From assembly GCF_048403405.1 (NCBI RefSeq), contig NZ_CP183129.1: a DNA stretch of 64,000 bases; one strand, written 5' to 3'. The notes under the pieces were generated by a model that ran no database searches, had not been told where the DNA came from, and saw nothing but the letters and a program-made list of their open reading frames with translations. Below are positions 3,022 to 44,913 of this stretch, one piece after another. The position numbers and the translations under genes are program-made. The stretch's first letter is position 1; each line of letters begins with the position of its first letter. This stretch comes from Escherichia coli (lineage in GTDB: Bacteria > Pseudomonadota > Gammaproteobacteria > Enterobacterales > Enterobacteriaceae).

Positions 3022-4275
3022 TTAATGGCTTTCAGCCCAGGCTCTTTCTATCTCTTCCGCCAGAATCTTCACTCCCGCCTCAATTTTCTCCGGCTCCGGC
3101 ACGTAGTTCATGCGCATACATTGATGTGTATGTGGCCACGGTTTATCCAGCCCTGGGAAGAAGTTGTGCCCCGGCACCATCAGCACGCCCCGTGCTTTCA
3201 GGCGCTGGTAGAGCTGCTCGGTCGTAATTGGCAAATCCTTAAACCATAGCCAGAGGAAAATGGCTCCTTCCGGTTTATGAATCAGGCAGCGATCTTCCGG
3301 TAAATAGCGGCGAATGATAGCGATAGTTTCCTGAACACGCTGGTAGTAAAACGGTTTGATGACTGTTTCAGACAGGCGCAGCAGATCGTTACGCTTAATC
3401 ATTTCACACATCATCGCCGGACCAATACCGCCAGGTGCCAGGCTGATAATGCCGTTCATATTGGTGATGGCGGTGATGATTTTTTCATTGGCGATGATAA
3501 TGCCGCAGCGGGAGCCAGGTAGCCCCAGCTTAGAAAGACTCATGCACAGTACGATATTCGGATTCCACAGCGGGCGCGCTTCGCTGAAGATGATACCCGG
3601 GAACGGGACGCCATAAGCGTTATCAATCACTAGCGGAATGCCGTGTTGATTCGCCAGCGCGTCAAGCTTCAGCAACTCTTCGTCAGTAATCACATTGCCT
3701 GTTGGATTCGTCGGCCGGGAGACGCAAATCATCCCGGTTTCTTCGCCAATATGCAGATGCTCAAAATCGACGTGGTATTTAAACTGGCCTTCCGGCAGCA
3801 GTTCAATATTCGGACGCGCAGAGACAAACAGATCTTCTTCCAGTCCGGCGTCAGCGTAGCCAATGTATTCCGGTGCCAGCGGGAACAGCACTTTTTTGAC
3901 CCGACCATCGGCACGGCGTCCGGCAAACAGATTAAATAAGTAGAAAAACGCGCTCTGGCTGCCGTTTGTTAGTGCAATATTCTGTGGTTCGATATCCCAA
4001 CCCAACTTCTCGCGCAGCATTCCGGCAAGCAGTGTGAGTAGCTCCGTTTTCCCCTGTGGACCGTCGTAATTGCACAGTGCATCAGTCGCTTTGCCACTTT
4101 CCAGCATGTCGGTCAGTAGCGTCTGGAAGTAGTCCTGCATTTCCGGGATCTGCGCTGGATTACCGCCGCCGAGCATAATCGCGCCAGGCGTGCGTAAACC
4201 GTCGTTCAGATCTTCCATCAGCAGCGTAATGCCGGAGTGGCGGGTAAATTTGTCACCAAAAAGGGAGAATGTCAT
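3022..4275 (-). CDS. avtA: valine-pyruvate aminotransferase (417 aa)
   Basis: ORF extends to 4380, but the internal ATG at 4273-4275 (MTFSLFGDKF) gives the recognised 417-aa AvtA; class I aminotransferase motifs. Confidence 0.88.
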   Translation of the reverse strand: MTFSLFGDKFTRHSGITLLMEDLNDGLRTPGAIMLGGGNPAQIPEMQDYFQTLLTDMLESGKATDALCNYDGPQGKTELLTLLAGMLREKLGWDIEPQNIALTNGSQSAFFYLFNLFAGRRADGRVKKVLFPLAPEYIGYADAGLEEDLFVSARPNIELLPEGQFKYHVDFEHLHIGEETGMICVSRPTNPTGNVITDEELLKLDALANQHGIPLVIDNAYGVPFPGIIFSEARPLWNPNIVLCMSLSKLGLPGSRCGIIIANEKIITAITNMNGIISLAPGGIGPAMMCEMIKRNDLLRLSETVIKPFYYQRVQETIAIIRRYLPEDRCLIHKPEGAIFLWLWFKDLPITTEQLYQRLKARGVLMVPGHNFFPGLDKPWPHTHQCMRMNYVPEPEKIEAGVKILAEEIERAWAESH

Positions 4276-7736: not shown

Positions 7737-8915
7737 CTACAACATGACCTCGCTATTTACATCGCGATACTCTTTTGGCGTCGTGTCATATGCTTTTTTA
7801 AAAACAGAGTAGAAATATTGCAGCGATGGATAACCGCACATTTGCGATATCTCATTGATCGACAAGGTGGTTGAAATCAGCAGACTGCGCGCTTTCTCCA
7901 GCTTCTCGGCATGAATCATGGCATGGATGGTTTCCCCCACCTCTTCTTTAAAACGCTTCTCAAGATTGGAGCGCGAGATCCCGACCGCATCCAGTACCTG
8001 ATCCACTTTAATCCCTTTACAGGCGTGATTACGAATGTAATGCATGGCCTGAATAACGGCGGGATCGGTCAGCGAGCGGTAATCTGTTGAGCGCCGTTCA
8101 ATGACGCGAACTGGTGGGACCAAAATCCGCTGTAGCGGCATTTCTTCTTTATCTAATAATCGATGCAACAGTTTTGCCGCCTGATAGCCCATTTGCCGTG
8201 CGCCCTGAGCGACCGAAGAAAGGGCGACACGCGACAGATAGCGGGTCAGTTCTTCGTTATCGATGCCAATCACGCATAATTTTTCCGGTACGGGAATGTG
8301 TAGATGTTCACATACTTGCAGAATATGCCGCGCCCGGGCGTCAGTAACGGCAATAATCCCGGTTTGCGGTGGCAGCGTTTGTAGCCAGTCTGCCAGCCGA
8401 TTTTGCGCGTGTTGCCAGTTCTCTGGCGCGGTTTCTAACCCCTGATAAACCACTCCGCGATACTTTTCTTCGGCGACAAGCTGACGAAATGCATATTCGC
8501 GTTCAGTGGCCCAACGTTTACCGCTTGATTCCGGAAGACCATAAAAAGCAAAGCGGTTAACGCCTTTCTCTTTTAAATGCAAAAATGCGCTTTCAACCAG
8601 CGCATAGTTATCGGTGGCAATGTAATGAACGGGTGGGTAACTTTCGGCAAGGTGATACGAGCCACCAACCCCAACAATGGGGACGTCGACATCAGCCAGC
8701 GCTTGCTCGATTTGTTTGTCGTCGAAGTCGGCAATGACGCCATCTCCTAACCAGTCCTTGATTTTATCAATGCGGGCGCGGAAATCTTCTTCAATGAAAA
8801 TATCCCATTCCGATTGTGACGCCTGTAAATATTCCCCTACGCCTTCTACTACCTGCCGGTCATAGGCTTTATTGGCATTGAACAGTAATGTGATGCGGTG
8901 ACGTTTAGTAAACAT
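7737..8915 (-). CDS. xylR: xylose operon activator, AraC family (392 aa)
   Basis: 392-aa ORF; periplasmic-binding-like N-domain plus C-terminal AraC HTH; adjacent to xylFGH. Confidence 0.9.
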   Translation of the reverse strand: MFTKRHRITLLFNANKAYDRQVVEGVGEYLQASQSEWDIFIEEDFRARIDKIKDWLGDGVIADFDDKQIEQALADVDVPIVGVGGSYHLAESYPPVHYIATDNYALVESAFLHLKEKGVNRFAFYGLPESSGKRWATEREYAFRQLVAEEKYRGVVYQGLETAPENWQHAQNRLADWLQTLPPQTGIIAVTDARARHILQVCEHLHIPVPEKLCVIGIDNEELTRYLSRVALSSVAQGARQMGYQAAKLLHRLLDKEEMPLQRILVPPVRVIERRSTDYRSLTDPAVIQAMHYIRNHACKGIKVDQVLDAVGISRSNLEKRFKEEVGETIHAMIHAEKLEKARSLLISTTLSINEISQMCGYPSLQYFYSVFKKAYDTTPKEYRDVNSEVML

Positions 8916-8992
8916 GGTTCTTTTCCTGCTGAATCATGCAAAAACTCAAAACCGGTAATACGTTACCGGCTTTGAGAAAATTTTTATCAAAA

Positions 8993-10174
8993 TCAAGAAC
9001 GGCGTTTGGTTGCGGAGTCCATCCATACTGCCAGCAACAGAATCGCACCTTTAACGATATACTGCCAGAAGGTCGGTACATCCATCATACTCATGCCGTT
9101 ATCCAGTGAAGCCATGATGAATGCCCCCATAACCGCTCCGGCCACGCTCCCGACGCCGCCTGCCAGACTGGTGCCGCCAATCACACATGCGGCAATTGCG
9201 TCCAGTTCGGCGATATTTCCCGCAGAAGGTGAACCAGCGCCAAGTCGAGAACTGAGGATTAATCCGGCGATAGCGACCATTAATCCGTTAATAGCGAATA
9301 CGGCAAGTTTGGTGCGTTCAACGTTAATCCCGGAGAGACGTGCTGCTTCCAGATTGCCGCCGATGGCATAAATGCGTCGTCCAAATGCCGTCCGCGTTGC
9401 CATAAACATTCCGCCGAGTAACAGCAACGTCAGCATCAGAACAGGAGTGGGAACGCCACGGTAATCGTTCAACAGCCAGATTGCGCCTAAGACGATAATC
9501 GCCGTTAATGCCTGGCGACCGACAACTGCGGTAGAGGCCGGAGACTGCAAACCCAAAGCCTGACGGCGCATTCTTCCGCGCCATTGCCAGCCAACAAAAG
9601 CCATTAAGCCAAGCGCGCCAATGATGAAGCCGGTGCTGGCGGGTAGATAGCTTTGCCCGATTTGTGACATCGCGGCGCTGGTGGGGGAAACAGTCGTGCC
9701 GTTGGTGATGCCAATGAGTATGCCGCGAAATGCCAACATGCCCGCGAGGGTGACAATAAATGAAGGGACTTTGCGGTACGCGACCCACCATCCGTTCCAG
9801 GCACCGAGAAGCAGTCCCAGAACCAAAGTCACAATGATGGTAAGTGGCAAAGGCCAGCCTAGCCAGACGTCACAAATCGCCGCGACGCCACCTAATAGCC
9901 CCATCATTGAGCCGACGGAAAGGTCGATTTCAGCAGAAATTATGACGAACACCATTCCTACCGCGAGGATGCCGGTAATCGCGGTCTGGCGTAACAGGTT
10001 GGAGACGTTACGAGCGCTTAAGTAGGCACCATCGGTGGTCCAGGTAAAGAACAGCATGATTGCGATGATAGCTGCAATCATCACGAAGACCTGCAAATTC
10101 AGTGACTTCAACCCGGAAAAGCCACCGGATGTCGGTACGGCCAATTTCACTTCAGACGGATTGCTTTTCGACAT
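8993..10174 (-). CDS. xylH: xylose ABC transporter permease (393 aa)
   Basis: Polytopic membrane ORF; overlaps xylG stop by 23 bp. Confidence 0.9.
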
Positions 10175-11693
10175 GATGTTCGCTCCTCAATGCGGCTTCC
10201 ATCACCTGCTCCTGAGTCAGGTTATGATTTATCAGGTTGGCTTTTAGTTTCCCTTCATGCATCACCAGTACACGATCGCTAAGGCCGAGCACTTCAGGTA
10301 ATTCGGAAGAGATGACAATAACGGCAATACCCTGCTGGACGAGTTGGTTAATTAATTTGTAGATCTCGTATTTCGCGCCAATATCGATACCCCTGGTGGG
10401 CTCATCAAGAATGAGAATGCGCGGGTTGAGTAACAGGCAGCGAGCGAGGATCGCTTTTTGCTGATTACCGCCGCTCAAACGTCCAATAGCAAGGTCGGGG
10501 GACGACGTTTTAACTTTGAGTTGCTGGATTGATTCCAGAATACATTTTTGCTCTGCCGCGTCATCAAGCTGGCTAATACCGCCGGTAAATTTATTGAGTG
10601 CGGCGAGGGTAATATTTTTACCAACCGCCATTACCGGAACGATGCCGTCGCGCTTTCTGTCTTCGGGTACCATCGCAATCCCCTGGGCGATGGCTTGCTG
10701 ACAATTACGAATATCTACCTGTTTGCCATCAATATAAATTTTTCCTTCCCATTGTCCGGGCCACACGCCAAACAGGCACTGAATGGTCTCTGTACGTCCG
10801 GCACCAACGAGTCCGGCAATACCTAATATTTCGCCACGTTTCAGGGAAAACGAGACATCATTAACTCGTTTAATATGACGATTAACCGGATGGCATGCCG
10901 TCAGATGTTCAATACGTAATATTTCATCTCCGGTGGTATGTGGTTCATTAGGGTAAAGCGCGGTTAACTCTCGCCCGACCATCATGGTGATAATATCGTC
11001 TTCACTCATTCCGGCAGCATCACGCGTACCAATGTGCTGACCGTCGCGAATAACGCAAATCGTATCGGAAATCGCTTTGACTTCGTTGAGTTTGTGCGAA
11101 ATATAAATACAGGCGATACCGTGCTGTTGCAGATCGCGAATAATATCCAGTAAAACCGACGTTTCCTGCTCAGTTAATGAGGCTGTCGGTTCATCGAGAA
11201 TTAACAAACGCACCTGTTTATTAAGTGCCTTGGCAATTTCAACCAGTTGTTGTTGCCCAAGCCCTAAATCGCCAACGCGGGTATCGGGTGAAATGGATAA
11301 ACTGACCTGTGCGAGCAGCTTCTGACAGCGTAGCGTCATCAGGTCATAATCCATAATGCCATTGTGGGTTATTTCGTTACCCAGGAAGATATTTTCCAGC
11401 ACGGTCAATTCTTTCACCAGGGCCAATTCCTGGTGAATGATGGCGATACCTTTGCGTTCGGTATCGCGGATGTGACTCGCCTGAATCTCTTCTCCCGTAA
11501 AAATAATTTCGCCTTCGTAGGAGCCATGGGGGTAAATACCACACAGCACTTTCATCAGCGTTGATTTACCAGACCCATTTTCCCCACAGAGTGAGACGAT
11601 TTCGCCAGCATTCAACCGCAAGCTGACGTTATCAATCGCCTTCACACTGCCGAAGGTTTTGGTAATGTTCTTCATTTCAAGTAGATAAGGCAT
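10152..11693 (-). CDS. xylG: xylose ABC transporter ATP-binding protein, duplicated ABC domains (513 aa)
   Basis: Two Walker A motifs ([18 protein letters not shown]) and ABC signature LSGGNQQK. Confidence 0.9.
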
Positions 11694-11770
11694 AACGACT
11701 CCACCTAAGCCAATTCATTCACGCGGCATGGAGAGAAATCACGCCCCCGCTCCTCGCCGGGGCGTAACGC

Positions 11771-12763
11771 TTACAGCTCGCTCTCTTTGTGGAATCCGTC
11801 TTTAACTACCGTTTCTTTGATGTTGTTTTTATTCACATCGATCGGTGTCAGCAGGCGGGAGGGAACATCTTTCAGACCATTATTCAGAGTGGTATCTGCT
11901 TTTGGTTCCTGACCATTGCCCAACTCAACGGCAATTTCTGCGGCAGTATTTGCCAACAATGTAATAGGTTTATACACCGTCATAGTTTGCGTACCGGCAG
12001 CAATACGTTTAATACCTGCGAGATCCGCATCCTGGCCGGAAATTGCTACTTTCCCTGATAAACCTTGCGCACTTAATGCCTGAATTGCCCCACCTGCGGT
12101 GGCATCGTTTGAGGCAACTACAGCATCAATTTTGTTATTATTGGCGGTTAGCGCGTTTTCCATAATTTTCAATGCGTTTTCCGGTAACCAGCCATCAACC
12201 CATTGGTCACCAACGACTTTAATTTTTCCGGAATCAACGTAAGGTTTTAACACTTTCATTTGCCCGGCGCGGAACAGCTTGGCGTTGTTATCTACCGGCG
12301 AGCCGCCCATCAGGAAGTAATTACCTTGCGGAACAATATCGACCAGGGCTTTTGCCTGCAGTTCACCGACTTTTTCGTTATCGAAAGAAATATAAAAATC
12401 GATATCCGCATCGTTAATCATACGGTCGTAAGCTAATACTTTAATACCTTCTTGTTTGGCTTCTTTTACAACGTTACTTAATACCTGACCGTTATACGGA
12501 ATAATGACAAGAACATCGACGCCCCGGTTAATCATGTTTTCAATCTGCGACATTTGTGTTTCTTCATTGCCATTTGCAGACTGTACAAATACTTTCGCGC
12601 CGAGAGATTCTGCCTTTTTCACAAAAATATCTCGATCTTTTTGCCAGCGTTCAAGACGGAGATCATCAATCGCCATACCTATTTTGACTTCTTTGGCGTG
12701 TGCCGCAACGTTGGTAAGCAGAAGTGAGGTGCAAAGGGTGAGTAGAATGTTCTTTATTTTCAT
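11771..12763 (-). CDS. xylF: D-xylose periplasmic binding protein (330 aa)
   Basis: Start set at ATG 12761-12763 (MKIKNILLTL signal peptide) inside a longer ORF; periplasmic binding protein fold. Confidence 0.88.
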   Translation of the reverse strand: MKIKNILLTLCTSLLLTNVAAHAKEVKIGMAIDDLRLERWQKDRDIFVKKAESLGAKVFVQSANGNEETQMSQIENMINRGVDVLVIIPYNGQVLSNVVKEAKQEGIKVLAYDRMINDADIDFYISFDNEKVGELQAKALVDIVPQGNYFLMGGSPVDNNAKLFRAGQMKVLKPYVDSGKIKVVGDQWVDGWLPENALKIMENALTANNNKIDAVVASNDATAGGAIQALSAQGLSGKVAISGQDADLAGIKRIAAGTQTMTVYKPITLLANTAAEIAVELGNGQEPKADTTLNNGLKDVPSRLLTPIDVNKNNIKETVVKDGFHKESEL

Positions 12764-13128: not shown

Positions 13129-14451
13129 ATGCAAGCCTATTTTGACCAGCTCGATCGCGTTCGTTATGAAGGCTCAAAATCCTCTAACCCGTTAGCATTC
13201 CATCACTATAATCCCGACGAACTGGTGTTGGGCAAGCGTATGGAAGAGCACTTGCGATTTGCCGCCTGCTACTGGCACACCTTCTGCTGGAACGGGGCGG
13301 ACATGTTTGGTGTGGGGGCGTTTAATCGTCCGTGGCAGCAGCCTGGTGAGGCACTGGCGTTGGCGAAGCGTAAAGCAGATGTCGCATTTGAGTTTTTCCA
13401 CAAGTTACATGTGCCATTTTATTGCTTCCACGACGTGGATGTTTCCCCTGAGGGCGCGTCGTTAAAAGAGTACATCAATAATTTTGCGCAAATGGTTGAT
13501 GTCCTGGCAGGCAAGCAAGAAGAGAGCGGCGTGAAGCTGCTGTGGGGAACCGCTAACTGCTTTACAAACCCTCGCTACGGCGCGGGTGCGGCGACGAACC
13601 CAGATCCTGAAGTCTTCAGCTGGGCGGCAACGCAAGTTGTTACAGCGATGGAAGCAACCCATAAATTGGGTGGTGAAAACTATGTCCTGTGGGGCGGTCG
13701 TGAAGGTTACGAAACGCTGTTAAATACCGACCTGCGTCAGGAGCGTGAACAACTGGGCCGCTTTATGCAGATGGTGGTTGAGCATAAACATAAAATCGGC
13801 TTCCAGGGTACGTTGCTTATCGAACCGAAACCGCAAGAACCGACCAAACATCAATATGATTACGATGCTGCGACAGTCTATGGCTTCCTGAAACAGTTTG
13901 GTCTGGAAAAAGAGATTAAACTGAACATTGAAGCTAACCACGCGACGCTGGCAGGTCACTCTTTCCATCATGAAATAGCCACCGCCATTGCGCTTGGCCT
14001 GTTCGGTTCTGTCGACGCTAACCGTGGCGATGCACAACTGGGCTGGGATACCGACCAGTTCCCGAACAGTGTGGAAGAGAATGCGCTGGTGATGTATGAA
14101 ATTCTCAAAGCAGGCGGTTTCACCACCGGCGGTCTGAACTTCGATGCCAAAGTACGTCGTCAAAGTACTGATAAATATGATCTGTTTTACGGTCATATCG
14201 GCGCGATGGATACGATGGCGTTGGCGCTGAAAATTGCAGCACGCATGATTGAAGATGGTGAGCTGGATAAACGCATCGCGCAGCGTTATTCCGGCTGGAA
14301 TAGCGAATTAGGCCAGCAAATCCTGAAAGGCCAAATGTCACTGGCAGATTTAGCCAAATATGCTCAGGAACACAATTTGTCTCCGGTGCATCAGAGTGGT
14401 CGCCAGGAGCAACTGGAAAATCTGGTAAACCATTATCTGTTCGACAAATAA
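13129..14451 (+). CDS. xylA: xylose isomerase (440 aa)
   Basis: Start at MQAYFDQLD inside a slightly longer ORF; recognised XylA sequence. Confidence 0.92.
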
Positions 14452-14522: not shown

Positions 14523-15976
14523 ATGTATATCGGGATAGATCTTGGCACCTCGGGCGTAAAAGTTATTTTGCTCAACGAGCAGGGCGAGGTGGTTGCTTCG
14601 CAAACGGAAAAGCTGACCGTTTCGCGCCCGCATCCACTCTGGTCGGAACAAGACCCGGAACAGTGGTGGCAGGCAACTGATCGCGCAATGAAAGCCCTGG
14701 GCGATCAGCATTCTCTGCAGGACGTTAAAGCATTGGGTATTGCCGGCCAGATGCACGGTGCAACCTTACTGGATGCCCAGCAACGGTTATTACGCCCTGC
14801 CATTTTGTGGAACGACGGGCGCTGTGCGCAAGAGTGCGCTTTGCTGGAAGCGCGAGTTCCGCAATCGCGGGTGATTACCGGTAACCTGATGATGCCCGGA
14901 TTTACTGCGCCTAAATTGCTATGGGTTCAGCGGCATGAGCCGGAGATATTCCGTCAAATCGACAAAGTATTGTTACCGAAAGATTACTTGCGTCTGCGTA
15001 TGACGGGGGAGTTTGCCAGCGATATGTCTGACGCAGCTGGCACCATGTGGCTGGATGTCGCAAAGCGTGACTGGAGTGACGTCATGCTGCAGGCTTGCCA
15101 CTTATCTCGTGACCAGATGCCCGCATTATACGAAGGCAGCGAAATTACTGGTGCTTTGTTACCTGAAGTTGCGAAAGCGTGGGGTATGGCGGCGGTGCCA
15201 GTTGTCGCAGGCGGTGGTGATAATGCAGCTGGTGCGGTTGGTGTAGGAATGGTTGATGCTAATCAGGCAATGTTATCGCTGGGGACGTCGGGGGTCTATT
15301 TTGCTGTCAGCGAAGGGTTCTTAAGCAAGCCAGAAAGCGCCGTACACAGCTTTTGCCATGCGCTACCGCAGCGTTGGCATTTAATGTCTGTGATGCTGAG
15401 TGCAGCGTCGTGTCTGGATTGGGCTGCGAAATTAACGGGCCTGAACAATGTCCCAGCTTTAATCGCGGCTGCTCAACAGGCTGATGAAAGTGCCGAGCCA
15501 GTTTGGTTTCTGCCTTATCTTTCCGGCGAGCGTACACCACACAATAATCCCCAGGCGAAGGGGGTTTTCTTTGGTTTGACTCATCAACATGGCCCCAATG
15601 AACTGGCGCGAGCAGTGCTGGAAGGCGTGGGTTATGCGCTGGCAGATGGCATGGATGTCGTGCATGCCTGCGGCATTAAACCGCAAAGTGTTACGTTGAT
15701 TGGTGGCGGGGCGCGTAGTGAGTACTGGCGTCAGATGCTGGCGGATATCAGCGGTCAGCGGCTCGATTACCGTACGGGGGGGATGTGGGGCCAGCACTGG
15801 GCGCAGCAAGGCTGGCGCAGATTGCGGCGAATCCAGAGAAATCGCTCATTGAGTTGTTGCCGCAACTGCCGTTAGAACAGTCGCATCTACCAGATGCGCA
15901 GCGTTATGCCGCTTATCAGCCACGACGTGAAACGTTCCGTCGCCTCTATCAGCAACTTCTGCCATTAATGGCGTAA
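14523..15976 (+). pseudogene. xylB: xylulokinase reading frame broken by a 1-bp contraction in a G run (about 15775-15782)
   Basis: ORF 14523..15875 carries the first 420 codons then reads out of frame; the C-terminal 63 codons (VGPALGAARLAQIAANPEKS...) lie in frame +1 at 15785..15976. 420 + 1 + 63 = 484 codons if one G is restored. Confidence 0.8.
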
Positions 15977-21617: not shown

Positions 21618-21871
21618 TCGCTAAATAATACAGCAACCTTTAATAATCTTCTGATGAATAAAGATTATCTCATATATTAATTTTATGAGATTTTTTTAGG
21701 ATTATATCAAGGAGAAGAAACGAACTTATTAAGCTAGAATAGCCACGGGTGCTTGAGACTGTTTGTCTCAGGTATTCACCGAAAGGCAGACAGAGAAAAG
21801 CCCCACCTGACTATAAATCAAAAGTGTACTGCACCCATTTTGTTGGACGATGAAATGGAATAGCCCCTAAT

Positions 21872-22393
21872 ATGTCAAAGCCAAAATACCCTTTTGAAAA
21901 GCGCCTTGAAGTCGTGAATCACTACTTCACAACTGATGATGGTTACAGGATCATCTCGGCACGTTTTGGTGTCCCCCGAACCCAGGTCAGGACATGGGTT
22001 GCCCTCTATGAAAAACATGGAGAAAAAGGTTTAATTCCCAAACCTAAAGGCGTTAGTGCTGATCCAGAGTTGCGTATTAAGGTCGTGAAAGCTGTGATCG
22101 AGCAGCACATGTCCCTTAATCAGGCTGCTGCTCACTTTATGCTTGCTGGTAGTGGTTCTGTAGCCAGGTGGCTGAAGGTCTATGAAGAGCGCGGAGAAGC
22201 TGGTTTACGCGCGCTCAAGATTGGCACCAAAAGAAACATTGCAATATCAGTTGATCCAGAAAAAGCGGCATCAGCATTGGAGCTGTCAAAAGACCGACGC
22301 ATTGAGGATCTTGAAAGGCAAGTTCGATTTCTTGAAACGCGGCTTATGTATCTAAAAAAGCTGAAAGCCTTAGCTCATCCCACGAAAAAGTAA
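21872..22393 (+). CDS. insJ: IS150 OrfA (173 aa, HTH DNA-binding)
   Basis: 173-aa ORF inside IS150 left part. Confidence 0.9.
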   Translation: MSKPKYPFEKRLEVVNHYFTTDDGYRIISARFGVPRTQVRTWVALYEKHGEKGLIPKPKGVSADPELRIKVVKAVIEQHMSLNQAAAHFMLAGSGSVARWLKVYEERGEAGLRALKIGTKRNIAISVDPEKAASALELSKDRRIEDLERQVRFLETRLMYLKKLKALAHPTKK

Positions 22394-23241
22394 AAGTACT
22401 CAACGAGCTAAGGCAGTTTTATCCTCTTGATGAGCTTCTCAGGGCTGCGGAGATACCGCGCAGTACGTTTTATTACCATCTAAAGGCTCTCAGCAAGCCT
22501 GACAAGTATGCGGACGTTAAAAAGCGTATTGGTGAGATTTATCATGAGAATAGAGGCCGATACGGATACCGTAGGGTAACGCTGTCTCTTCATCGAGAAG
22601 GGAAACAGATTAACCATAAAGCTGTTCAGCGCCTGATGGGAACCCTCTCACTTAAGGCAGCGATTAAGGTCAAGCGATACCGCTCTTACAGAGGAGAGGT
22701 AGGGCAAACCGCCCCCAATGTTCTCCAAAGAGATTTCAAGGCTACGCGGCCAAACGAGAAGTGGGTTACCGATGTTACTGAATTTGCAGTCAATGGGCGC
22801 AAGCTGTATTTGTCTCCAGTAATAGATCTCTTCAACAACGAAGTTATTTCTTACAGCCTTTCGGAAAGACCAGTGATGAACATGGTCGAGAATATGCTCG
22901 ATCAGGCATTCAAAAAGCTTAATCCTCACGAGCATCCTGTTCTGCACTCTGACCAGGGATGGCAGTATCGTATGAGAAGATATCAAAATATCCTTAAAGA
23001 ATATGGTATTAAACAAAGCATGTCCAGAAAAGGCAATTGTCTGGATAATGCTGTGGTGGAGTGTTTCTTTGGAACCTTAAAATCGGAGTGTTTTTATCTT
23101 GATGAGTTCAGTAATATAAGCGAACTGAAGGATGCTGTTACGGAATATATTGAATACTACAACAGCAGAAGAATTAGCCTGAAATTAAAAGGTCTGACTC
23201 CAATTGAATATCGGAATCAGACCTATATGCCTCGTGTTTAA
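22336..23241 (+). CDS. insK: IS150 OrfB reading frame (DDE transposase catalytic domain), expressed as OrfAB fusion by -1 frameshift
   Basis: -1 frame relative to orfA is open from 22336 to the stop at 23241; slippery heptamer A AAA AAG at 22354-22360 in orfA frame; no in-frame ATG before 22636, so the 5' boundary is by frame only. Confidence 0.8.
22354..22360 (+). promoter_or_regulatory. programmed -1 ribosomal frameshift heptamer A AAA AAG of IS150
   Basis: Heptamer phased X XXY YYZ in the orfA frame, inside the orfA/orfB overlap. Confidence 0.8.
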
Positions 23242-23282
23242 CTGTCCAACTTTTTGGGGTCAGTACAAAGTGAGGCTACCCT

Positions 23283-35239: not shown

Positions 35240-35251
35240 GCGCCCCGCATT

Positions 35252-35328
<77 letters not shown>

Positions 35329-35664
35329 AATTCGAAATGCCTGCTCAGCGAGCAGGCTTTTTTGCATTTGTAGCTCATGAGGATGAGAACCTCCGGGGGC
35401 GGGGAGGTTCGACTCGAGCGAAGCGAGAGAACGTTGCGCCAGCAACGGCCCGCAGGGCGAGCCACGAAGTGGCGAGTAATCCTCTATCACCGACCAAATT
35501 CGAAAAGCCTGCTCAGCGAGCAGGCTTTTTTGCATCTGCAGCCCATGAGGATGAGAACCTCCGGGGGCAGGGAGGTTCGACTCGAGCGAAGCGAGAGAAC
35601 GTTGCGCCAGCAACGGCCCGCAGGGCGAGCCACGAAGTGGCGAGTAATCCTCTGGCACCGACCA
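35329..35664 (+). repeat. two tandem 168-bp direct repeats after proK, each with a terminator-like hairpin and a copy of the tRNA-Pro 3' end
   Basis: Unit 1 35329-35496, unit 2 35497-35664, about 95% identical; each has gcctgctcagcgagcaggcTTTTTT and ends in aatcctct(a/g)(t/g)caccgacca. Confidence 0.85.
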
Positions 35665-36260
35665 AATTCGGCACCGCACTCATTGTGGGATACAGCGTAT
35701 CCGTCTTATCCGATCTAAACGGCAACACACCACACATTTCCCTGCCAAATTTGCGCCCCATATCTCACTATCCATTAATGGATTTGTGACAGAAACCATT
35801 GTCTTTTTTTATATTTGCTTAAATCTTTTTTTGCGTTACTTATGACTGGCGCTGGCATTTTCCGCTGTGCGTTTTAGCGTTCATGGTATTAATCGCTCAG
35901 ATATCCACCTTTTCCTCAGATTTTTTTCACTAAATGCATAAAACTTAATCACCAAATGTTGCTAAATATTAAGCTGATTGTTCTGGTCATGTTGGAGTAG
36001 CACAAATTTCTCTGCTGCAAATAGCGGTTTGAAGTTTTTTTAATCTTTGTTTGTGGATTCTCACCGTTGGTGTAAATCCCGGTTGGCTGTATTGACGTTT
36101 TCACATTCTGTTGACAGATTGTAGGTCACGAGGGGCATTTTATGGAGGATCCGCACTGTTACACTGATGTTAATTAGTACGGCATCCCCACCTCATAACG
36201 TTGACCCGACCGGGCAAAAAACAAAAAAGGTCAGGCGGCGACAACCCACTGCAAAGGGTT

Positions 36261-43278: not shown

Positions 43279-43753
43279 AAAGTCCTGTCCAGAAAGAAGT
43301 CGGCCTCGCAAAAATGAATAAACCCAGTTTCTCTTGCGCAACAGGTGGAGAAGTCGAATACGCAGTATGTAAAAAATGAGGCAACAGATTCACTGGGGAG
43401 GTCGCGAGTAGGCGCAATTCTACAAAATTGCGCATTTCACTACCAGTCTGGAGTCAGCCCGGATATGAACTGCAACTATTGCAAATAAAGAAATTAAGCT
43501 GGAAGGCATCGCGCAATGAGGAAGATTGCCGGGTGCTGACGGTAAAAAGCAATCGTAGAATCAGCGGCAAGCCGGAAAGGTTCCGGTGAGGCGCAATGTT
43601 GCGGGGGCTTTATCCCTGGTGGCATTGGTTGCTGGAGAGAGAAAACCCCCGCACGTTGCAGGTATGCACCTGACAACATCACGGGGGCCATTCTTGAACC
43701 TACACAACTCAAGAATAGCCGCGAAACGTTGTCATTACAACAGAGGCGGCTAT

Positions 43754-43861
43754 ATGACGCTCGCAGAGCTGGGCATGGCCTTCTGGCACGATTTAGCGGC
43801 TCCGGTCATTGCTGGCATTCTTGCCAGCATGATCGTGAACTGGCTGAACAAGCAGAAGTAA
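43754..43861 (+). CDS. Ldr-family type I toxin peptide, copy 1 (35 aa, ...NWLNKQK)
   Basis: MTLAELGMAFWHDLAAPVIAGILASMIVNWLNKQK; ATG at 43754. Confidence 0.8.
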   Translation: MTLAELGMAFWHDLAAPVIAGILASMIVNWLNKQK

Positions 43862-44236
43862 CGTGTCAGACGGGCGTCAGGCTGCCGTAATGGCAATTTG
43901 CGCCCGGATCAGGCCGCAGGGATAAAACTCTGCGGCCTTTTTCGTAAGAAAAATGCAACGGTTGCAAGCGGATAATATTCTGCGGAATGCGCAGCACAGA
44001 GTGAAGAAGTGACGGATTCCGGAACAGAAAAACAGTCGTAGAATCAGCGGCAAGCCGGAAGGGTTCCGGTGAGGCGCAATGTTGCGGGGGCTTAATCCCT
44101 GGTGGCATTGGTTGCTGGAGAGAGAAAACCCCCGCACGTTGCAGGTATGCACCTGACAACACCACGGGGGCCATTCTTGCATCCAAACAATACAAGAATA
44201 GCCGCGAAACGTTGTCATTACAACAGAGGCGGCTAT

Positions 44237-44344
44237 ATGACGCTCGCAGAGCTGGGCATGGCCTTCTGGCATGATTTAGCGGCTCCGGTCATTGCTGGCA
44301 TTCTTGCCAGCATGATCGTGAACTGGCTGAATAAGCGGAAGTAA
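44237..44344 (+). CDS. Ldr-family type I toxin peptide, copy 2 (35 aa, ...NWLNKRK)
   Basis: MTLAELGMAFWHDLAAPVIAGILASMIVNWLNKRK; 483 bp after copy 1. Confidence 0.8.
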   Translation: MTLAELGMAFWHDLAAPVIAGILASMIVNWLNKRK

Positions 44345-44719
44345 CGTGTCAGACGGGCGTCAGGCTGCCGTAATGGCAATTTGCGCCCGGACCAGGCCGC
44401 AGGGATAAAACTCTGCGGCCTTTTTCGTAAGAAAAATGCAACGGTTGCAAGCGGATAATATTCTGCGGAATGCGCAGCACAGAGTGAAGAAGTGATGGAT
44501 TCCGGAACAGAAAAACAGTCGTAGAATCAGCGGCAAGCCGGAAAGGTTCCGGTGAGGCGCAATGTTGCGGGGGCTTAATCCCTGGTGGCATTGGTTGCTG
44601 GAGAGAGAAAACCCCCGCACGTTGCAGGTATGCACCTGACAACACCACGGGGGCCATTCTTGCATCTAGACCATTCAAGAATAGCCGCGAAACGTTGTCA
44701 TTACAACAGAGGCGGCTAT

Positions 44720-44827
44720 ATGACGCTCGCAGAGCTGGGCATGGCCTTCTGGCATGATTTAGCGGCTCCGGTCATTGCTGGCATTCTTGCCAGCATGATC
44801 GTGAACTGGCTGAACAAGCGGAAGTAA
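44720..44827 (+). CDS. Ldr-family type I toxin peptide, copy 3 (35 aa, ...NWLNKRK)
   Basis: Identical peptide to copy 2; 483 bp after copy 2. Confidence 0.8.
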   Translation: MTLAELGMAFWHDLAAPVIAGILASMIVNWLNKRK

Positions 44828-44913
44828 CGTGTCATGCGGGCGTCAGGCTGCCGTAATGGCAATTTGCGCCCGGACCAGGCCGCAGGGGTGAAACTCTGCG
44901 GCCTTTTTCGTTC

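Follow-up and report, generated by a model that had tools for sequence, protein, structure and literature searches.

A one-base contraction of a poly-G tract splits xylB in an Escherichia coli assembly: consensus error or slipped-strand mutation at a recurrent hotspot

The xylulokinase gene (xylB) is interrupted in the Escherichia coli assembly analyzed here by the lack of a single base in a run of G. This locus raises the question of whether the base was lost from the DNA of the cell or from the consensus sequence, and whether a tract of this kind could serve as a switch. We investigated it within the window, by which we mean the whole stretch of 64,000 nucleotides that was analyzed; it covers the yia-xyl-gly-dpp-bcs chromosomal region of E. 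coli. The coordinates of the relevant features are collected in Table 1.

In the list of open reading frames and their translations, the frame that starts with the ATG at 14523 terminates at 15873–15875 and encodes 450 residues. Residues 1–420 are native, and residues 421–450 (MWGQHW...CRNCR) are out of frame; the 30-residue tail is not present in any XylB homologue with a solved structure in the alignment. The native frame picks up at 15785 and runs to a stop codon at 15974–15976 as an ORF of 63 codons, whose product (residues 422–484) is identical to the C-terminus of E. coli XylB (PDB 2ITM). Insertion of one G into the run in silico gives exactly 484 codons, and the repaired protein aligns with 2ITM over residues 1–484 with few substitutions. 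The tract is located at codon 419 of 484 and is the sole run of G or C of at least 7 bases within the window. The original prediction was that a contraction from 8 G to 7 G had split xylB and that the intact gene requires 8 G; the nearest genomes, with 8 G and a 484-residue XylB, bear this out. Its counts all hold: 420 native codons, 30 tail residues, 63 codons left in the native frame, and 484 codons once the G is restored. The run of 7 G that it described exists but lies at 15776–15782, one base away from the 15775–15781 originally assigned to it. As written, xylB differs from the gene in the genomes of strains MS 69-1 and 4621 by one base in a mononucleotide run, and repair restores the 484-residue orthologue. 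In this written form, it is a pseudogene, in which a −1 frameshift truncates xylulokinase after residue 420.

Table 1. Features of the window that bear on the xylB frameshift
Feature	Position	Strand	Remarks
xylF, xylG, xylH, xylR (xylose ABC transporter, activator)	7737..12763	−	Intact; no difference from MS 69-1
xylA (xylose isomerase)	13129..14451	+	Intact; upstream in the xylB operon; equal to MS 69-1 WP_001149573.1
xylB (xylulokinase)	14523..15976	+	As written, frameshifted; length of 1454 nt not divisible by 3
G7 homopolymer in xylB	15776..15782	+	Intact allele is G8, encoding Thr-Gly-Gly-Asp as ACG GGG GGG GAT
Out-of-frame xylB tail	15783..15875	+	30 codons, M421 to R450, then premature TAG
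Rest of native xylB frame, residues 422–484	15785..15976	+	63-aa ORF detached from the N-terminal part
IS150	~21827–23265	+	Between glyS and hokA
Two RtT repeats after tRNA-Pro	~35250–35665		Annotation as in MS 69-1, which is identical here
Three tandem ldr type I toxin genes	~43540–44910		Period ~483 bp; MS 69-1, identical here, has the same annotation
bcsA (cellulose synthase catalytic subunit)	49570–52187		A6 to A5 at 49978–49982 splits it into 142 + 730 aa

The effect of the truncation on the protein was examined with two equivalog models, NCBIfam NF011601 (curated cut-off, 912 bits) and TIGR01312 (cut-off, 380 bits). NF011601 matches the repaired XylB over positions 1–484 of 484 with 1106.6 bits and the XylB as written over positions 1–425 of 484 with 975.6 bits. 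The corresponding TIGR01312 scores are 651.7 bits for the repaired protein and 611.8 bits for the protein as written, where the match ends at position 422 of 481. The whole-protein score of XylB as written is thus above the cut-off for both models; in neither of these profiles does the match reach full length and include the C-terminal FGGY_C portion. Pfam FGGY_C spans residues 249–436 of the intact protein, and the frameshift costs XylB the last 16 residues of this domain and the whole C-terminal extension. The segment immediately after the shift (D-V-G-P-A-L-G-A-A-R-L) matches segments in other FGGY kinases of solved structure, namely LsrK, the xylulokinase 5VM1, and 3HZ6, and the Ala-Leu-Gly and Gly-Ala-Ala positions are kept in the aligned segments. 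This segment would be the helix returning from one domain to the other in the ASKHA fold. With the end of FGGY_C and a helix conserved among FGGY kinases both lost, it is reasonable to regard the G7 form of xylB as a predicted null allele.

The rest of the xylose pathway is retained. The gene order xylR-xylH-xylG-xylF / xylA-xylB, with xylAB divergent from xylFGHR, is identical to that of the annotated MS 69-1 locus. The expectation that xylA and the transporter would be kept proved right, since xylA and xylFGHR show no base difference from their MS 69-1 counterparts, which are annotated as intact. No polar effect of the frameshift is expected because xylB is the last gene in the operon; a scan 3' of xylB for a terminator or promoter gave no match. 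If the G7 allele is real, xylose would be taken up and isomerized and the xylulose would not be phosphorylated, giving a Xyl-negative cell that could revert by regaining one G. The original prediction made impaired xylose catabolism conditional on a real frameshift. Loss of XylB function is plausible, with the end of FGGY_C and the conserved helix removed, but the reality of the mutation in this genome cannot be asserted with confidence.

The genomes closest to the window frame this uncertainty. The closest complete genomes are those of MS 69-1, TUM1226, 4621, TUM14771, GN02461, and OX030728, and all six are one base longer than the window across its first 25 kb. Full alignments were made for MS 69-1 and 4621, and in both the tract has 8 G and xylB (WP_000275360.1) is intact. 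The window represents an MS 69-1-like E. coli with a 7-G length variant of the 8-G tract. Over the 64 kb, the window and MS 69-1 (CP146675) differ at three positions: one SNP and two one-base homopolymer losses. Both losses are gene-breaking (G8 to G7 in xylB and A6 to A5 in bcsA). The SNP, at 43409, is intergenic, between yhjV and the first ldr toxin gene, and has T in the window and G in both MS 69-1 and 4621. A paralogous source for this base was excluded, the surrounding sequence being unique in the window. Since it falls in unique sequence, this SNP shows that the window comes from a separate isolate of the MS 69-1-like clade rather than from a faulty copy of the MS 69-1 sequence. At the glyS-hokA locus, 2013C-4991 and NCTC9699 also have IS150, in the opposite orientation, and clade contigs assembled from short reads are interrupted there.

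We consider that the G missing from xylB in this assembly is slightly likelier to be a consensus error, introduced in basecalling or polishing, than a change in the DNA of the cell. An error is favored because gene-breaking losses of one base from a homopolymer account for two of the three private differences. A ratio of frameshifting indels to SNPs of 2:1 is typical of consensus error and atypical of natural divergence at one SNP per 64 kb. The window is gap-free and has no N's through the multicopy IS150 and the three ldr repeats; therefore, it probably derives from a long-read assembly. No complete E. coli genome in RefSeq contains it, the best hits all being one base longer; nor was it found among GTDB species representatives or on any indexed contig of at least 64 kb bearing the 450-residue product. 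The 8-G tract is the longest G/C run in the region and is prone both to replication slippage and to miscalls of homopolymer length, and we infer that the second of these produced the present instance of G7.

The alternative is that xylB was truly inactivated, by slipped-strand loss of one G from the G8 tract, either in this isolate alone or in a minor sublineage of the MS 69-1-like clade; we regard this as a serious possibility, if rather short of an even chance. The SNP at 43409 is in keeping with it, because it marks a distinct isolate, and so is the predicted null character of an allele that would lose the conserved FGGY helix and the end of FGGY_C. The consensus also appears clean in other homopolymers. 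None of the 20 A/T runs of 7–8 bases in the window differs from MS 69-1, which argues against an assembly full of homopolymer errors that scale with run length. A miscall in a run of six A with every longer run correct would also be an unexpected pattern. On the other hand, the closest complete genomes examined have G8 and an intact xylB, and a second private homopolymer frameshift in 64 kb beside one SNP is improbable by natural divergence.

The A5 contraction in bcsA, the second frameshift, is not shared by MS 69-1 or 4621. Strain 4621 has a bcsA frameshift of its own, a G5 to G4 contraction at the position matching 50546–50550 of the window, and other lineages have a nonsense mutation (K137 stop) at the spot of the A5 change. 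The 730-residue C-terminal product of BcsA is listed in 637 blocks of the assembly index. Inactivation of bcsA thus appears to recur often in E. coli. Because bcsA has been broken independently in 4621 and in other lineages, the frameshift in the window could be a genuine, selected loss, and this counts in favor of a real mutation in xylB as well. Among the matches listed in the bcsA look-up, all are on other backgrounds, with ~98% identity. Several contigs of >1 Mb with the A5 form, from contig-level long-read assemblies, have many of the neighboring bcs genes split (bcsE, bcsG, bcsQ, bcsB, bcsC, and bcsZ). This is a clear sign that those assemblies are loaded with homopolymer errors that imitate pseudogenes.

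A real mutation would also be favored by its occurrence in relatives of the isolate. Three other assemblies with G7 fall within the clade (GCA_040252855.1, SRR29466652, and SRR24492470), with 0–1 mismatches and 100%, 100%, and 99.99% identity to the window over 17.3, 11.8, and 9.0 kb, respectively. They have no other frameshift nearby, and one of the contigs ends exactly at the IS150 boundary, as is usual for short-read data; these assemblies are apparently accurate. However, the enrichment of G7 in the MS 69-1-like clade falls short of significance (~4 of ~560 blocks, against 12 of ~4,490 elsewhere; odds ratio 2.7, p = 0.09), and the clade contigs could represent independent events. For this comparison, the clade was defined by blocks with its MalS and XylG alleles (~540–590 out of ~5,050). 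The complete genomes had hinted at an ~18-fold enrichment in the clade, which was dropped as strong evidence once block denominators were used.

Beyond the clade, tract-length variants recur widely in public data. An exact 67-mer containing 7 G was used to count the G7 allele, which was found in 67 of ~5,400 complete RefSeq E. coli genomes, 63 with the K-12-type flank and four with the window-type flank. The four are E686, ETEC1701, M2021-10044802/2-E, and Ch1. The complete genomes with the G7 pseudogene belong to genetic backgrounds other than that of the window, with ~99% identity or less. All six of the G7 genome records that were opened are annotated as 'xylB, xylulokinase, frameshifted'. 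The exact 450-residue product is present in nr as EFF9340560.1 and others, under the name 'xylulokinase [Escherichia coli]', and in UniRef. Expansions of the tract are found as well. NCTC86 and O55:H7 DEC5A have G9, with a 443-residue product annotated as frameshifted, and about eight more complete genomes with a match of the same length probably have G9 too. A G10 variant with a 451-residue product also exists. On the window-type background, G9 products are present on 29 contigs versus 9 contigs for G7 products, and the G9 product has a UniRef entry.

The allele predicted for the window is verified, but the frameshift is neither new nor rare, since PGAP annotates an identical pseudogene in many genomes. 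A literature search for a specific description of a poly-G frameshift in xylB of E. coli or Shigella found none. Whether error or mutation, the G7 form of xylB is a known, ordinary event, a one-base change of length at a poly-G hotspot in a catabolic gene. Over 40 kb of two of the complete G7 genomes, no gene other than xylB is frameshifted, which shows that this tract is singularly vulnerable and counts towards an error.

The types of assembly in which G7 occurs were compared using the assembly index. Among window-type XylB blocks, 5,030 are intact and 16 have 7 G; among K-12-type blocks, 39,120 are intact and 816 have 7 G. The K-12-type G7 form accounts for 75 of 2,083 blocks on contigs of >1 Mb and 741 of 37,853 blocks (~2%) on shorter contigs (odds ratio 1.9, p = 2e-6). 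The excess of G7 calls in long contigs leans towards error. The list of complete G7 genomes includes laboratory derivatives of K-12 and several runs of consecutive accession numbers, and several of the latter batches are presumably long-read-only projects. Within the shorter class, 327 of the 741 blocks fall in the 20–50 kb size class. The K-12-type G7 data suggest a genuine occurrence of the allele in at least one large clonal lineage or laboratory stock. The presence of G7, G9, and G10 in hundreds of mostly short-read contigs, together with the apparent fixation of G7 in a Shigella flexneri lineage described below, supports a real mutation in the present isolate.

The same G8 to G7 change in xylB, with the same 450-residue architecture (UniRef A0A2Y5A1B3_SHIFL), is present in this S. 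flexneri lineage in 406 blocks, mostly on contigs of 10–50 kb. In the S. flexneri assemblies examined, the G run was located at position 4254–4260 of the locus. These data suggest that G7 is fixed in this lineage, and here at least the mutation appears to be real and inherited. The S. flexneri gene adjoins a split xylA (225 + 212 residues); the xylose pathway has decayed as a whole in this lineage, with both xylA and xylB affected, whereas xylA and the transporter are intact in the window. The G7 form is also present in the K-12 derivatives AG100 and ER1709, which have 'xyl' markers. The possibility that G7 is one of the classical markers xyl-5 and xyl-7 was ruled out, as both have other lesions: xyl-5 is W69* in xylA (PMC5379014), and xyl-7 is a set of missense mutations in xylB and xylA with IS1 in xylF (PMC4444293).

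Length variants in both directions (G7, G9, and G10) on several genetic backgrounds would also be expected of a switch. In other bacteria, phase variation classically relies on poly-G tracts. We therefore considered whether the tract is a phase-variable locus that turns xylose utilization on and off, or whether a 7-G template is recoded by programmed ribosomal or transcriptional slippage. Taken together, these two proposals are extremely improbable. Loci encoding the peptide DYRTGGDVGPA were collected from species-representative genomes across Enterobacterales (n = 120). At this site, 79 of the 120 have a longest G run of 2, and a run of 8 is confined to 3 loci, from two Escherichia sp. and from Kluyvera georgiana. 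The tract is thus not conserved across species, as it would be in a contingency locus that is maintained in spite of synonymous alternatives. Its position also speaks against a switch: codon 419 of 484 is not in the 5' region, and xylB is a housekeeping gene of catabolism, neither a surface nor a restriction-modification gene. ON and OFF lengths do both exist in nature, as the public G7–G10 alleles demonstrate; however, this is equally true of any passive hotspot.

Recoding is similarly disfavored. In a programmed frameshift, the out-of-frame template is the normal state, whereas the block counts (5,030 versus 16 and 39,120 versus 816) favor the in-frame G8. For each of the two XylB alleles checked, ~98% or more of the contigs carry the in-frame product, so that no recoding is needed. 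On reading the xylB sequence, no known slippery heptamer or stimulator was recognized. Judged from its distribution, the 8-G run is a chance product of codon choice (ACG GGG GGG GAT) that occurs mostly in Escherichia; it is neither a recoding site nor a contingency tract under conservation. It is very unlikely, in a narrower form of the same idea, that the G8 tract acts as a reversible switch of xylose catabolism in E. coli and Shigella. Under this proposal, OFF alleles (G7, G9, and G10) would be held at 0.3–2% by recurrent slippage, would occasionally be favored (e.g., in host niches where the use of xylose is costly), and would have become fixed in S. flexneri.

The biological weight of the xylB frameshift is small. 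If the mutation is real, one isolate or a small sublineage would be xylose-negative in a revertible manner, which would be of minor use for biotyping and would be one more case of a gene lost at a mutation-prone site. Its practical value is that of a quality flag. A xylB with 7 G or 9 G in an E. coli assembly indicates a possible homopolymer error and should prompt a check of the whole assembly. The reads over the xylB tract deserve checking before a xylose-negative phenotype is inferred.

Compared with known systems, the window resembles the published cases in which systematic homopolymer errors in long-read assemblies create false pseudogenes (e.g., Homopolish, PMC8011154), in that a one-base loss in the longest G/C run yields an apparent pseudogene. 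It differs from them in that all of the longer A/T runs are correct and in that short-read-like contigs with G7 exist. The contingency loci of Neisseria, Haemophilus, Campylobacter, and Helicobacter share with xylB the mechanism, a reversible one-base change in a poly-G tract that switches the reading frame. In contrast to those loci, the xylB tract is short, is unconserved across species, and lies close to the 3' end of its gene, which belongs to core catabolism; there is no sign of selection for a switch.
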